Positions 42,001 to 48,304 of a stretch of 48,304 nt of DNA are shown in pieces (position 1 is the stretch's first letter; each line of letters opens with the position of its first letter). A program made the position numbers. Origin of the DNA: a virus (taxonomy: Duplodnaviria > Heunggongvirae > Uroviricota > Caudoviricetes); IMG/VR virus record IMGVR_UViG_2563366867_000009. One strand, 5' to 3'.

Positions 42001-45000
42001 CTGCCTCAGCAGTGACCAGTTGTTTTATATCTGTCATGAGATTTTCTCGTTGAAAGGGGTTATTAAGAAGGTTGTTCCGGAATGAGTGGGGCTTCTGTTT
42101 TTGCTCCGGCTGACTGAGTGGCGCTGATTTTCTCAGCGGCCCTTTTGTCAATCTGTCTGCGCCAGAAGTCGCGTACTGCCCTGTATCCACCCGAAAGCAG
42201 ATACAACACACAGACCACCGTACAGAAGTACAGCATTAACTGGTTGATGAATGTCATGGTTTATTACCGTTACTGTTGACAATGAGAACTGTTTTCATTT
42301 AGAAATGATTGATGTCGAAAGCATCCTTTCGTTAGATTCTCCATTGGGATTACCTCCGCCAGTCTCCATTCCTGTTGCTGGCGGTTTTTTTCGTCTGTTA
42401 TGCTGCTACGGCATTCACACCAACAGTAAGACTTTCAATCAGCACAGGGTAAGTTGCCGCATTTCCGGTAATATCCGTAATTGCCAGCGCGTTGGCCTCA
42501 AAGGCTGCATTCGTCCATCTGGTCAGCGTAAACGGTTTTCCTGCTGCATTATCAAGCACCGGCGTGACGTTCAGCGAGCCACCACCCGGGAAGCGGAAAG
42601 TCAGCGTGTGCCAGTCGTGATCGAACGGACCATAACTACCAAGCCGCTGTGATGTGGTGTTTGCATGATACATCACATTGATGTTTGTTTTATCAGTCTG
42701 CAGATAGAAGGCCGCAATATAACCCTCCTCTGATTCCGCTCCCGGCCATCCACTACCGCGCCAGTAAATACCCGCAGAATATTGATTTGCAGAAGCATTG
42801 AGAGATACATCATCGGGGATTTTAAAGCGCAGCGTGATTTCACCGCCGTTATCGAACAGCTCCTTCCCCTTACCGGCATCAATTGCGTGCGATACTTTCC
42901 AGGTCTTTTTCTGTGCAAGACCATTTTCTGGTTTTTCAAGACGAAGGGCTTTTTTACCTGAACCACTGTCACTGACCAGCGTGTTTTTGACATCTGTCAG
43001 CGTCCAGCCCTGCGAAGCCAGATCGGCATTTTCCGCATTCGCATCATAAGCCAGCACTGACTGTATCTTTGTCGGGACAACGGATTCAGGCTGAGTATCG
43101 CCACTCTCCTGTGCTGGTTGCGATACGCCTCCGCCTGAAGAAACCGCGGCTTTTGTCACTTTCCCGGAAACAAAATCTGCCACTCTGCCCACATGCAGAA
43201 GAATGGCTGTTGCCAGACGGTCGGAAATAATTCCGCGACGCGCCCATGAACCAAAGTGGGTTTTACGATCGGATGTTGTCCAGCTCTTCGCATCCGTTCG
43301 TCCACCGGAACCATAATACCCGATAGCCGGAATATCCGGGTCTTCTGACGGTTCATTGGTCCCGACTTTCTGACCATTGTCATCCATCATAAACGGCACA
43401 AAGAAGATATTTTTACCGGCTTTGGTTTTGTATGCGCCATAGACGGCATCGTATTGCGCTGAATACGTCTCCTTCCAGTAGTACGTCGTGTCACCACAAA
43501 TCCAGGGCACCAGAGAAGGAGAAGCACCAGCGCACTGACCGGATACTCCCGCCAGGTCAGAACGGTATTTTTCCACCATGGCATCAAACATGGCGGGCTG
43601 ACTGGCGTACGCTCCCTGTTTTAAATCAAACTCGCCCTGCATCCAGACAACACAAAGCAGTATGTTTTTGGGGTTTGCCTTCAGCGCGGCCTGAGTGCGT
43701 GTCAGCAGGTCTTTATACAACGGCTTATCAACGCCCCATCGTTCAGATTTATCCGACGCTCCTGAACTTTCACTGAACGTTCCGTCAGCACCGGCTGTAA
43801 ACGCAGAGCCACCACGACAGCACGGCACTAACAAAATACCCGCATTTTCCGGCATAAAGGGCAACAGCTTTTTGGCAATATGCAATCCCTGTCCGACACA
43901 CCCATACTGCTCTGCGCTGGCTTTCGGATGAGAAAAACGGCTCAAATCCTGCACATCATGCAGGCAGTGGTCCGCCGGAATGATGTCGTTATATGCACAG
44001 GCCGCACCACCCGGTGTCACCGTACTGCGACGCGCCAGCTGTTTAATACGCGGGTCCGGACGGTCATATGTCTCCGGCAGCGGCAGGCCTTCACCATACG
44101 CCATGCCGTTTGACTGTCCGGCCAGCGCAATGACAAAGTAATATTCTGGTTCAACAACAACAGTCCGGGTACCATCTCCCCCCGGTGAAACTACCGGAGA
44201 GGTCATATCCCCTTCAGCGACTATAGCCTGGATAAATTCAGCACCATAACCCGCGCTTGAGATAATCGGACTACCATAGGGTTGCCAGCCTTCCTTCAGT
44301 TTTTGCGTCAGTTTTCCTGCGAGGTCTGACGGCGATGATGCCCTGACCACGTCATAGTGTTTAAATGCCATGAATCCTCCCGGCCGGGATAGTGGGTTGA
44401 ATCAGATAAGGACTGACTGAAGTCTGAAAATACAAAAGACAACTGCCAGTAAAAACGAAAAGGCCGCGCAGTTGCGCAGTCTCATCACCATCGGGTATTA
44501 TTCACACGGTGAATAATCGAAACTCACTTTCTTTGTTTTATTCCTTGCCGCTCGCGCCTCCCGGCGCGGGCTTTTTTTGCATGTAAAAAGGCCCCTGCGA
44601 TGAGGGGCCTGAGAGTATTACCTGGTTTCAGTTAACTGCATAGTGCCGGGTGCCTCCCGGTGAGTTCAGCCCGGTGCCACCGAACCCGCGTCTTTCACAT
44701 TGCCTGTGACATTAAAAATGCCAGCCCGCACCAGCCGCCCCGCCGCTGAGGGGGATTCACCATGCGTTGCGATTTTTAACAAATTCTCCGTCAGTCAGAC
44801 AATCATCAACTTGCTGAATTGTGAGGTATTTAAAAATTTCCCCGATTAACTGATACCCTGCTAATCACCTGTTGTTTTCTTTTTCAGCAACAAAAAAGCC
44901 CGCTCATCGGCGGATTCGGCTGCGTGGCAATGTAACCATTCTTATCATGATATGAGGATTTTTACGATTGTAAAATGTTTTTTAACTGACACCAGAATCA

Positions 45001-48000
45001 TCATAACCGCGACTTGTTATAGCTTGCCTGTATGCGTTCATTTTGCGTTCTGCGTACTGGACAACATCTTTAATGACAAGCTTATGAACAACTGAAATAA
45101 GGTCATTTATATAACAAAAGTCAGGTGACTTATTTTTCACTGGCAACCAAATAACATCGTCCTTAATTTTTCTATTACTAACACTATCCCCCCATGAATA
45201 TTTATGTGAAATAGACCTATAAATACATGAAATAATGCCCAAATAAGCAAACTTTGTCCTTCCATCCTCATTGTTAACATAGAGTCGCAAATTATGACTG
45301 TCGTTTGAAAAAAAGTCTCGCTCCTGATAAGTTACAACGAATGTCTTACCACCAATAAAAATACAGTTCCCTTTTTCCAAGAGTGAGTCATCATAGGCGA
45401 TATAAGAACTAACAGAGTTATTATCACGGCTAGCACAAAGATAAGGAACATCCCCACTATTTTCTATGATGTCTCTAGACAATATGTTTCCTGTATTGCA
45501 CACTGAGAATAACTCAGTAACAGGAAAGCCTGAAAATTCAATATTTTTAAAATGTTCCAGGATAAGATAATCTTTTTCCGTTAGTTGGTAATCACTCAGC
45601 CCAGCAGCTATCAGGTATGCTTCCAGCTCTTCTATATGGGCCGCTTCCAGCTCTTCTATATGGGCCGCTTCCAGCTCTTCTATATAATTATCCATAAAAA
45701 ACCAGTCAATTTCATTATTTTTCACTGGTAATGAGATGAAATATTCTCCATCTCTGAGTTTGGAACTCGATAACTGTTGACCATAATTAAAACGCCCCTT
45801 TAAAGCTTTATTAATCATACTGGCAACATACAGTCCGCGCTTTGCATTAAAGTCGGACTTACTTGATTTTAATGTAAGAACATGCACCTTCATTTCTACG
45901 CTGGCACAATAAGGATGATAAAAAGCATCTCCAAAAAAATTAACGCTTATAAAATTTTCATAATGCCTTGCATCATCCATAAACTCGGTATCAAACTCTC
46001 CGATGATACCGTTTTGATCGCTCTTTGCTGAAACACGTTTGATTTTGCCTGGTTTTAATCTTCCTGAGGAGATAAGCGAGCCTGTGCTCACATAGAACAA
46101 ATCGCCAATCCTGAACTCTCCCCACTCAACGCTTCTTAATTTATCGCTGAGCGGGGAATTTACTTTCCCGCAAAATTGTTTTCACCTTGTTTTTTCAGTA
46201 ATTGCGAGACCTCCCATGCAAGGTAATCACCTACCGTCTTTTTGAAATCCTCCAGCGTTGGCCTAGCATCTACTGGCCTGGTCTGATTCCAGTCCTCACC
46301 ACTATCAGGATCGATTGTTCCCTCAAAATATTCATCCTCCGTAAAGATATTAAGGCAACCTTTCCCGAAGTGAACCAGATCCACAACCTCCTGATAACGC
46401 TCTTTTGCACGATCAGCATCAACAAGATTGTTTCTTGCCTTTTTGCGATTAGAGCGAGCGTAGCCGTCATTGGAAAAGTCGATAAACTTAACAGCCTGTT
46501 TCGCGTTATGCGGAATTTTTACCTGAAAAACGTAAATGTACGTCTGAACGCTTGATTTACCAATAAACAGATCCGCAGGCATTTTGATGCTTGCCAGCAA
46601 GGTATTTTCCTTGAGTATTTTTTTGTTGTACTCCGTAGCCTTTCCTGTGCCAGCTGAACTCTGGATAATCACTGCAGCATAGCCTTTATCCATCATCGAC
46701 AGCGCCTTCTGCACGAAAATCATGCCGTTACCTTTAGCTGAATACGGAGGATTGAGAATAAATGCGTCCGCAGGGAATTTTTCTCCTGTTTTCCCAAATC
46801 CATACTTGCCGTCAAAATCGGCCAGCGAGTCTTTATTGAGGATATTCGAGCTACCATCCCCCATCAAAATCATATTCAGGATGGCCAGCATATAAATACT
46901 GGATAACACCTCAAGGCCAAGAAGCTGTTCAGCCTTGATTTGCGCTTCCTTAAGTTGTAGTTCGTTCGGTGAGTGAATATTTTCTCTGGCGTCAATGAGC
47001 ATTTCATTCATTGCAGCCACAAGCAATCCCGCAGAACCTGTAGCAAAATCCCACACATAGGAATCTTTGTTTACTCTGGCGAGTCGTGCCAGCAATGTGG
47101 CAACATAAGGTGGTGTCAGAACGACGTCATTGAGCTTGTCCTGCGTAAATCCAAGCCAGCGATACATCTCATTAAACAGTTTGCCCGTAAAATCGGTGGT
47201 CAGTCCAATTTTGTAATACTCCCCAAGATCATCAACAACTTTAACAAACACGCGCTTTAACTGGCTTTCACCGTTGACTGGTTTGTTAATGTTTTCAGTC
47301 CACAGCGTATTTTGCAACGAGCGCAAAATCATTTCTCTTTTTGTTTCAGGAACAGCTTTCAGCCTTAAAAAATTCCTTATTTTCCTGAAAATAATATCAC
47401 CATCACGCAAGTCCTCCTCCGTTGAAGAGGTCAGTTCTTTTTTATCCAGCGGTGCTAACTTTCCCGGAATCCCCAACGTTGCAATAACGGTAGCCACAAC
47501 AAGGTAAACACGATCGCTTTCACCAAGCCCCTTTTCATTCTGGTAAATATCGTTATTCAGACGGGAAAGTCGCGTGTCTATCTCTTCCTCTTTGCTGGCC
47601 TTGATTTTTTCCAGTTCTTCGGGAGGAAGATTAAGCAGCTTTATCTTGTTGAGAAATCCATCAACATTTTTGTCAGCAAGGAACGATAAGTCGGTGAATT
47701 CACCAACCTTCTGTCCGGCTCCTAAATTATTCTTTGATACGTACCACACGCCGATTTCATGATGCAGTTCGCCTGTATCATCATCGCGCCAGCCGGTCAT
47801 ACCAATAGCAATAATATCAGGGTAATTGGTGAACTGAAGAAGTGCGTTGGCATAATGGACTGCGCCATTCACCGCGTATCCATTAATATTTTTAAAATTC
47901 CATTCTTTTCTGGCATCTTTGTTCTCAATAATACCGTTGCTGCCAAGTCTGATAAGCCTGTCCTTGTAGCCTTTATACTCGATGAGAACGGGATACTGCT

Positions 48001-48304
48001 TGCCGTATTTGTCCTTAACAAGGAGTTTTACGTCGGGACGATTACCGCCTGCGCCGCCATTTTTCGAAAAATAAGCGTCCAGTGCGTTATCGATCTCTCC
48101 GTTAAGTGATGCATTCTGCAACTTGTAATCAAGCCTGTAAGATTTAAGCCATGAGTTCGCCAGTTCGGTAATTTCCGGCTCAACAGATTTTACAGACTTT
48201 CTTGATTTACTGCTGGTCGCTGGTCGCTGGTCGCTGGTCGCTGGTCGCTGGTCGCTGGTCGCTGGTCGCTGGTCGCTGGTCGCTGGTCGCTGGTCGCTGG
48301 TCGC

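Follow-up and report, generated by a model that had tools for sequence, protein, structure and literature searches.

A predicted BcgI-like Type IIB restriction-modification module with a heptanucleotide repeat and a candidate -1 frameshift junction in lambdoid prophages of Escherichia coli

The window analysed here is a stretch of 48,304 nucleotides from a tailed phage (Caudoviricetes; IMG/VR record IMGVR_UViG_2563366867_000009). Between 44982 and 48304, ORF calling identified two co-oriented minus-strand open reading frames (ORFs), gene A, coding for a restriction-modification (RM) subunit, and gene S, coding for a specificity subunit. It is very probable that this locus is a phase-variable Type IIB system. 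Its fuller description as a BcgI-like Type IIB cassette, carried as cargo between the Q/hok genes and the esterase-lysis genes and subject to three layers of control, is likely. On balance the evidence also leans towards a broader proposal, in which a Type IIB family spread across phyla makes both a free RM subunit and an RM~S fusion by a conserved -1 frameshift, built from the heptamer G_GGA_AAR, the adjoining stop codon and a hairpin. The lambdoid prophages of E. coli, including those encoding Shiga toxin (Stx), would add to this a heptanucleotide switch that toggles restriction, modification and specificity jointly.

The DNA of the window is also present in E. coli SCU-104 (99.8% identical) and in phage PhiR12_3 of ECOR13 (99.2% identical). 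The order of genes in both is the Q antiterminator, hok/gef, a heptanucleotide tract, A, S, an esterase, the lysis genes and terminase. Extension past 48304, where the window ends, was therefore made through SCU-104; it revealed the true start of A and the Q gene, and no hsdR.

Genes and predicted subunits

The body of gene A (46160..48211, minus strand) encodes 683 amino acids after the repeat and ends with the stop codon TAA at 46162-46160. Its product matched the Pfam family N6_Mtase (4e-21) and, over residues 1-645, the PADLOC model REase_MTase_IIG (757 bits, E 3.6e-228). Weak matches were also obtained to VRR_NUC at residues 5-57 and to the NCBIfam model hsdM, the latter scoring 36 bits against a cut-off of 243 bits. 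In the translation, a nuclease motif of the form PD-x17-EYK, PDVKLLVKDKYGKQYPVLIEYK, is encoded at 47972..48037 (minus strand). It is followed by methyltransferase motif I, DFATGSAGLL, for the binding of S-adenosylmethionine (47021..47050, minus strand), and by the catalytic motif IV, NPPY (46742..46753, minus strand). No variation was seen at D60, E78 and K80, in motif I or in NPPY among relatives with 72-86% identity. A is predicted to consist of an N-terminal PD-(D/E)xK nuclease and a gamma-type N6-adenine methyltransferase. Over its full length it is 72% identical to Neisseria proteins of 686 amino acids, which begin at the start of the A body, and the body (675-676 amino acids) is intact in 27 of 27 E. 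coli loci. Neither A nor a profile of A matched any PDB sequence at E <= 0.1, the chains of BsaXI and of Type I HsdM being among those left undetected.

The ORF tool placed A at 46160..48121 and S at 44982..46100, both on the minus strand. The TTG at 48121 is not the true start of A, because the A frame is still open at the end of the window. An internal TTG was likewise chosen for A by the Prokaryotic Genome Annotation Pipeline (PGAP). The 30 residues between the tract and this TTG (SKSRKSVKSVEPEITELANSWLKSYRLDYK) contain no start codon. They align with the N-termini of the 686-residue Neisseria proteins and of Providencia proteins of 679 amino acids, all of which start there and have no repeat.

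Gene S, taken from the heptamer in the -1 frame (44982..46163, minus strand), was defined by Pfam, PADLOC and frame analysis and encodes two target recognition domains (TRDs). Its product matched Methylase_S in two stretches (Pfam, 3.5e-19) and Specificity_II at residues 80-339 (PADLOC), and it aligns with Neisseria S proteins of 357-365 amino acids, though it may be produced chiefly as a fusion. Within the central helical spacer between the two TRDs lies an in-frame 24-bp repeat (HIEELEAA) of 2.8 copies at 45619..45685 (minus strand). The number of EELEA units is three in the window and in SCU-104, two in most E. coli loci and two to four in a second S allele (allele 2), while the S proteins of Neisseria have one or two units at the matching place. 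In EcoR124I/II, the spacing between the two halves of the recognition site is set by the copy number of a repeat between the TRDs. The 24-bp repeat probably acts likewise, its copy number tuning the length of the spacer in the bipartite site recognized by S.

Window-type S is full length in all loci that carry it except L016. Allele 2 contains, directly after the 24-bp repeat and also between the TRDs, an 8-bp repeat, (CGCGGACT)n, of 19-29 copies (L021 1722-1872 and L022 1666-1896; also L020, L023 and L024). Only OkiPb01714 has this repeat in frame, S being divided into two half-ORFs in the other loci. It is likely to be a second switch, between full-length and half-S specificities. In L020 (E. 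coli 2015C-3121) an IS1 element is inserted in S. PGAP divides S into a coding sequence and a pseudogene in many loci, including both that have three copies of the 24-bp repeat.

A preliminary description of the window, made from the sequence, had noted the two genes with the motifs quoted above. Their presence was confirmed by Pfam, by PADLOC and by a check of the coordinates, the family searches of both proteins returning N6_Mtase for A and Methylase_S for S. A further motif quoted there, LAILNMILMG, also occurs in the translation of A. The architecture had been likened to that of BcgI, and this comparison is upheld by the family models, the invariant motifs, the position of the module and a two-gene layout without hsdR, no copy of which was found in the 6-kb flanks in SCU-104, PhiR12_3 or Neisseria. 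The region had been described as richer in AT than the prophage, and its GC content is indeed 0.35-0.39 over S and 0.42-0.46 over A, compared with 0.48-0.54 in the adjoining esterase/lysis region. Repeats had been reported in both genes, and these are the 24-bp unit of S and the 7-bp unit of A. The repeats were mentioned there without interpretation, and neither the lack of a start codon in S nor the -1 frame was seen.

The heptanucleotide tract

The 5' coding end of A is a tract of (GCGACCA/CAGCGAC)n at 48212..48304 (minus strand), which is cut by the end of the window. Tandem Repeats Finder reported a perfect 7-bp unit in 13.3 copies, running off the end of the window, and in the A frame the tract encodes (PATSDQR)n. 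The break in the window may have been caused by the repeat itself during assembly. The SCU-104 tract comprises 65 copies, and the sequence 5' of it is AAAAGGATGATTTTATGCTGCCAGAC. This leader contains two ATG codons in different frames: ATG2 has an AAGGA Shine-Dalgarno sequence 7 nt upstream, and ATG1 abuts that Shine-Dalgarno sequence. Both frames other than that of A reach a TAA just 3' of the tract. Proteins from E. coli in the databases begin MLPDQRPATSDQR..., MLPDQR(PATSDQR)n or MILCCQTSDQR(PATSDQR)n, with varying n.

The tract was surveyed in the 27 E. coli loci fetched, where it ranges from 19 to 120 copies and is perfect in 20. The copy number sets the frame of A, because 7 is not a multiple of 3, and this setting of the frame by repeat number was demonstrated in silico. 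In 6 loci A is in frame with ATG2, the well-placed start (MLPDQR...), in 10 it is in frame with ATG1, a poorly placed and doubtful start (MILCCQ...), and in 11 it is off. Among the strains, G8 and DETEC-S792 have the ATG2 frame, E2855, 2013C-3250 and G1/2 the ATG1 frame, while SCU-104, G6/7 and 2013C-3033 are off. Among isolates whose flanks have 0-1 mismatches over 4.6 kb, the tract varies in length by 7-43 units. These sets are G1/2, G6/7 and G8 with 91, 82 and 98 copies, isolates of O111:H8 with 55, 82 and 57, and the UCPROB pair with 75 and 82; a fourth near-clonal set has 23, 22 and 19 copies. These counts are taken from assemblies, and counts in long-read assemblies can be wrong. The properties of a contingency locus are thus found here, namely a perfect 7-bp repeat, located in the 5' coding region, that sets the reading frame and whose copy number outruns point mutation. 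Judged from these properties, the tract looks like a slipped-strand phase switch of A.

A count of exactly 82 copies recurs in L002, L007, L010 and L013, which come from unrelated sources and have hok/Q flanks with up to 24 mismatches. Possible reasons are a length favoured by the tract and an artefact of assembly. In L020 a long poly-C run, probably an assembly artefact, stands beside the tract. On the strand opposite the repeat, RefSeq annotates an ORF, named either 'YXWGXW repeat-containing protein' or 'hypothetical protein', at 9803-10294 (plus strand) in L001 and at equivalent places in L003-L027; the corresponding part of the window is 48212-48304. It was rejected as a gene since its length tracks the number of repeats and that frame contains no stop.

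The junction of A and S

The first ATG, GTG or TTG in gene S occurs only at 46100, past the conserved motif SVEWGEFRIGD. The S proteins of Neisseria start MLESVEW, and the aligned codons in the window are AAA TTA AGA AGC GTT GAG TGG, the start ATG of Neisseria thus corresponding to AAA. S is read in the -1 frame of A, and this frame extends without a stop back through the final codons of A, GC G_GGA_AAG TAA. The G_GGA_AAG at 46163..46169 (minus strand), in the A frame and immediately 5' of the A stop, is a candidate -1 slippery heptamer, a sequence described as highly shift-prone in E. coli (PMC5009743). A predicted RNA hairpin with a 14-bp stem and a 13-nt loop (46118..46158, minus strand) starts 4 nt past the heptamer and is a candidate frameshift stimulator. 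From these features, we infer that S is fairly likely to be reached by programmed -1 frameshifting, which would yield both RM and the fusion RM~S.

The same junction occurs elsewhere, as A_AAA_AAG in other E. coli alleles and as G_GGA_AAG TAG in Neisseria. The family was examined in 80 loci from one-genome-per-species contigs, of which 75 were usable. An in-frame heptamer of the form X_XXY_YYZ was found in the last codons of A in 74 of the 75, from many phyla, as GGGAAAA (42 loci), GGGAAAG (28) or AAAAAAR (4). The glycine codon of the heptamer is always GGA. The codon before the heptamer always ends in X (CTG, TTG, TCG, CCG, GAG, CAG or GCG), and its amino acid varies. The A stop codon adjoins the heptamer in 68 of the 74 loci. 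The -1 frame is open in 72, and in 68 loci it extends for at least 300 amino acids. A conserved tryptophan of S stands exactly 15 codons past the heptamer in 70 of 70 loci, including those in which A stops one or four codons further on. No canonical start codon lies between the heptamer and this tryptophan in 42 of the 70, the window among them. In two loci an upstream start of S is excluded because a -1-frame TGA directly precedes the heptamer. The entropies of the linker at codon positions 1, 2 and 3 (1.04, 0.57 and 1.14) fit the -1 frame.

In the window, the 81-nt stretch holding the hairpin has a minimum free energy of -26.6 kcal/mol (z -3.5). Across the family the hairpin begins 4-6 nt past the heptamer. 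In an alignment of 70 sequences, 95.3% of the cells of the family helix are paired, the corresponding figure for slid controls being 33-49%. Compensatory changes occur in five pairs, and none of 500 shuffles matched the observed score. One of the pairs links the synonymous third base of a leucine codon to the first base of a Glu/Lys codon, and occurs as UA 33 times, CG 17 times, UG 14 times and GC once. Where an allele has another linker peptide, its hairpin also differs but occupies the same place. Transcriptional slippage was also considered as the source of the frame change; the A7 run of allele 2/3 could permit it, but it is unlikely at GGGAAAG and GGGAAAA, the sequences of 70 of the 74 heptamers.

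The predicted peptide across the frames of the A/S junction is ...FAGKVNSPLSDK, with the junction peptide ...NNFAGKVNSPLSDK. A query made of the last 260 amino acids of A joined to S through ...FAGK-VNSPL... retrieved natural single-ORF proteins of 1,041-1,075 amino acids, containing N6_Mtase and Methylase_S, at 96-99% query coverage, for example from Campylobacter concisus. Forms of about 850-920 amino acids were also retrieved at about 66-72% query coverage, consistent with RM plus part of S. The junctions of the natural fusions, ...EKKNSPLNEKLNNLEWKEFKIGDLF and ...LGGISTKLNEKLQSVKWGEY, carry a linker homologous to that of the window, ...AGKVNSPLSDKLRSVEWGEFRIGDLF.

Alternative explanations

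Rather than by frameshifting, S could be made by translational coupling, or termination-reinitiation, near the A stop. The start would be the ATG of an ATGA overlap, or else a near-cognate ATA or GTA or a downstream TTG or GTG. In that case the heptamer and the hairpin would have arisen from coding constraints or from a structure that masks a ribosome binding site. There is a precedent in EcoKI, in which hsdM and hsdS overlap by 1 nt and are translationally coupled (PMC3510504). Several observations in the family speak for coupling and against frameshifting as the only route. Gene callers predict free S proteins, and the linker contains an ATG, GTG or TTG in 28 of the 70 loci. An ATGA overlap occurs in four loci and an ATG at linker codon 9 in eight, including Neisseria, while many have a TTG at codon 10. 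Some lineages thus initiate S on its own or by coupling. In the window, too, the start of S could be a near-cognate codon or the TTG at 46100, with an AGGA 8 nt before it. In addition, the conserved V(E/K)WG is encoded by the hairpin's 3' arm, so coding for protein accounts for part of the hairpin's conservation. Nevertheless, coupling as the general explanation is unlikely. It does not account for the 42 loci that lack a canonical start before the tryptophan. GTA is not known to act as an initiator, and ATA is a very poor one. A start at 46100 would remove the conserved SVEWGEFRIGD. Nor does coupling explain why the glycine codon is invariably GGA and the codon before it always ends in G across five amino acids, or why AAAAAAR, and not random sequence, stands in where GGGAAAR is missing. 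The length of the linker is registered to the heptamer even when the stop comes one or four codons later, and the natural fusions share the linker. Frameshifting and coupling may coexist in some lineages.

The RefSeq reading, that of an orphan Type I-like pair of HsdM and HsdS, would have A start at the internal TTG and the tract be a non-coding variable number tandem repeat (VNTR) or an opposite-strand gene, with neither restriction nor phase variation. It agrees with the PGAP names, 'HsdM family class I SAM-dependent methyltransferase' and 'restriction endonuclease subunit S' with an opposite-strand repeat protein, and with the weak hsdM match. That match lies far below its cut-off, whereas the Type IIG RM model matches over the full length. 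The N-terminal 300 amino acids with the invariant PD..ExK are not found in HsdM proteins, and with this extra nuclease region in A and no hsdR in the 6-kb flanks the locus does not have the makeup of a Type I system. The 30 amino acids before the TTG are conserved in other genera and no start codon follows the tract, whereas an ATG with a Shine-Dalgarno sequence adjoins it. The opposite-strand ORF follows the repeat in length and has no family match beyond low complexity. This reading is accordingly regarded as highly improbable. It is also very improbable that the module is a decaying remnant, in which the disrupted frame and the missing start of S mark genes that are dead in E. coli. Decay would fit the 11 of 27 genomes that are out of frame and the allele-2 loci in which S is broken by IS1 or split by the 8-bp repeat. 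A gonococcal BcgI-like system, NgoAVIII, has no detectable methylation though it is apparently intact (PMC6789123). Against decay, the A body is intact in every locus, and window-type S is full length with the single exception given above. The three frames are about evenly filled, as would be expected of a fast reversible switch and not of one-way loss, and most tracts are perfect. Moreover, the start-less arrangement of S is kept across phyla together with about 70% protein identity.

Other points weigh against the proposed switch and frameshift or limit their reach. All of the results were obtained in silico. An AlphaFold2 model of A from an alignment of eight sequences had a mean predicted local distance difference test score of 50.6 and a predicted template modelling score of 0.35, too poor for a check of the fold. 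As assembled, 7 of the 27 tracts are imperfect. The 10 genomes in the ATG1 frame may be off, since the Shine-Dalgarno sequence directly abuts ATG1. The on or off state of the window itself is unreadable because the window is cut inside the tract. A scan for promoters between hok and the ATG in SCU-104 found no consensus site. Lastly, a change from off to on should expose an unmethylated chromosome to cleavage, and the model does not explain how this is avoided.

Proposed mechanism

In the preferred reading, which combines the switch with frameshifting, translation of A would start at an ATG upstream of the window and cross the perfect (CAGCGAC)n tract. Slipped-strand mispairing would alter n and thereby place A in the ATG2 frame, in the ATG1 frame or out of frame. 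Most ribosomes translating A would stop at the TAA and release free RM. A fraction would slip by -1 on G_GGA_AAG, aided by the adjacent stop and the hairpin 4 nt further on, and continue into S. The product would be an RM~S fusion of about 1,076 amino acids plus the extension encoded by the repeat. RM and RM~S are then expected to assemble into (RM)2S, as in BcgI and BsaXI. Since S has no canonical start before its conserved N-terminus, a single tract would govern restriction, modification and specificity together. The module would protect the lysogen from phage and plasmid DNA entering the cell, and its stochastic switching would be a form of bet-hedging.

This stoichiometry has counterparts among characterized enzymes. 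BcgI-like enzymes are composed of 2RM:1S (PMC3874165), and BsaXI was found to be (RM)2S by cryo-electron microscopy (PMC11997821). The 1RM:2TRD stoichiometry of the fused AloI and CjeI enzymes has been termed 'a mystery' (PMC3874165). An engineered M-S fusion of EcoKI was active in vivo, while extra free M was needed in vitro (PMC3510504).

Distribution and genomic context

Gene A was found in only 29 of 5,426 complete E. coli genomes. Three of the carriers of the module are real Stx phages, with stx1c in 2013C-3033 and stx2 in OkiPb01692 and OkiPb01696. The module is additional cargo of the stx hot spot, and not an alternative to stx, because in the Stx phages it sits upstream of the tRNA-stx block. 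The preliminary description had placed it in the slot of the toxin genes; a late-region position for such cargo holds, but replacement of the tRNA-stx block does not, as the three Stx genomes show. The order in L015, L022 and L023 is Q, hok, the repeat, A, S, the remnant of a site-specific methyltransferase, tRNA-Ile/Arg/Arg and stx. A hok/gef toxin gene is located between Q and the tract in all of the E. coli loci, for example at 10451-10606 (minus strand) in L001, just past the end of the window. The only sigma-70-like promoter in the hok/Q scan lies at the end of Q.

Outside E. coli, the A/S pair of Neisseria is chromosomal and flanked by housekeeping genes. Homologues regarded as always on are carried by Neisseria lactamica, N. 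flavescens, Aggregatibacter and Gilliamella. The A proteins of Firmicutes, Bacteroidota, Proteobacteria, Cyanobacteria and the candidate phyla radiation (CPR) share about 70% identity (L031-L110). This unusually high sequence conservation appears to imply a recent and frequent horizontal spread of the RM family.

Neighbouring features of the window

Downstream of the module lies a SASA/DUF6645 esterase gene (42398-44371), followed by holin, lysozyme and Rz genes. The module had been described as directly upstream of this esterase and lysis cassette. The order is correct, but a gap of about 600 bp separates S from the esterase and holds a terminator-like hairpin and a homologue of the small RNA STnc100. 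The hairpin, with its T run (44899..44914, minus strand), lies 68 nt 3' of the S stop codon and is the probable 3' end of the A/S module. The STnc100 homologue (Rfam RF02076; 44579-44795, minus strand) is a full-length match of 150.6 bits (E 1e-34), and it has a terminator-like hairpin of its own at 44610-44589. This unrelated small RNA was the sole match in an Rfam scan of 44000-48304, in which nothing was found over the frameshift hairpin or the 7-bp repeat. A tRNA scan of 40000-48304 found none.

Significance and comparison with known systems

Errors of annotation in RefSeq, namely an HsdM with an internal TTG start, a spurious repeat protein and a truncated or split S, make the system and its switch invisible to surveys of defence systems and methylomes. 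Repeat-driven phase variation is rare in E. coli. A switchable restriction barrier on prophages, Stx1 and Stx2 phages included, would have consequences for gene flow and for the susceptibility of pathogenic lineages to phages, and possibly also for their epigenetic heterogeneity. The tract is a highly polymorphic VNTR and could also serve for strain typing. If the frameshift is real, it is the first case of recoding in an RM system known to us, and one kept from Firmicutes to Cyanobacteria and CPR. It would build (RM)2S into translation, answering both the question of the RM:S ratio and the 1RM:2TRD puzzle of the fused Type IIB enzymes. It would also suggest how the single-chain enzymes of the AloI/CjeI type are related to the two-subunit enzymes of the BcgI type.

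Prophage-borne Type IIB systems and the phase variation of methylases by simple sequence repeats (SSRs) are already known; what is new is a heptanucleotide-switched Type IIB module in E. coli. A conserved -1 frameshift joining RM and S would be a new way of producing RM subunits. Frameshifting in RM systems was not found in the literature searched, which included a large review of recoding and the GeneTack survey, but it may be known to the curators of REBASE. For the 7-bp repeat sequence itself no paper was found in the literature searched. A match to 'BcgI' in a paper on mastitis E. coli was set aside, being the name of a phosphotransferase system gene.

The module resembles BcgI, BaeI, CspCI, BsaXI and NgoAVIII in combining nuclease and gamma-type N6-adenine methylase in one subunit, with a separate two-TRD S, no HsdR or translocase and a two-gene operon (PMC3874165; PMC11997821). 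It differs from the BcgI-like systems in that S of the window seems to have no start of its own and would be reached by -1 frameshifting, and in that the E. coli alleles add a 5' heptanucleotide switch. Moreover, no solved structure, not even that of BsaXI, is matched by A of the window at the sequence level. In its architecture, RM~S1~S2, the predicted trans-frame product agrees with the single-chain enzymes AloI, CjeI, PpiI and TstI. Unlike AloI and CjeI, the fusion would be one of two products, and the free RM made with it would supply the second catalytic subunit.

With regard to switching, the closest parallel is neuO of the E. coli K1 prophage CUS-3, which is also prophage cargo with a perfect 7-bp repeat in the 5' coding region and a wide spread of copy numbers. 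The neuO repeat, AAGACTC, has 3-53 copies and allows expression only at multiples of three (PMC13001214). The two differ in the repeat unit and in the product, neuO encoding a capsule O-acetyltransferase and the window module an RM enzyme, and the latter has two ATGs in two frames and longer tracts. A survey of Type I systems described 5' SSRs in hsdM as on/off switches, and SSRs between the TRDs of hsdS (PMC7383803). The module shares with these systems a 5' SSR in the methylase gene and, in allele 2, an 8-bp SSR between the TRDs of S. In contrast, the Type IIB nuclease and methylase form one polypeptide, so that restriction and modification would switch together. The host of the module is E. 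coli, whereas E. coli does not appear in the main text of that survey (PMC7383803).

The junction of A and S is similar to those of G/GT of phage lambda, tau/gamma of dnaX and orfA/orfAB of IS3, with an X_XXY_YYZ heptamer, a close 3' hairpin and two products, predicted in the case of the window, that coincide at the N-terminus and are required at a set ratio (PMC5009743). It is distinguished from known cases of -1 frameshifting by the class of gene, an RM gene, and by the stop codon that adjoins the heptamer in nearly all loci. The 'Type IMS' fusion of EcoKI (Roberts et al. 2012) likewise joins the C-terminus of M to the N-terminus of S and requires free M as well for activity in vitro (PMC3510504). 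It was engineered by removing the 1-nt offset between the genes, whereas in the window both forms would be produced from one mRNA by recoding.

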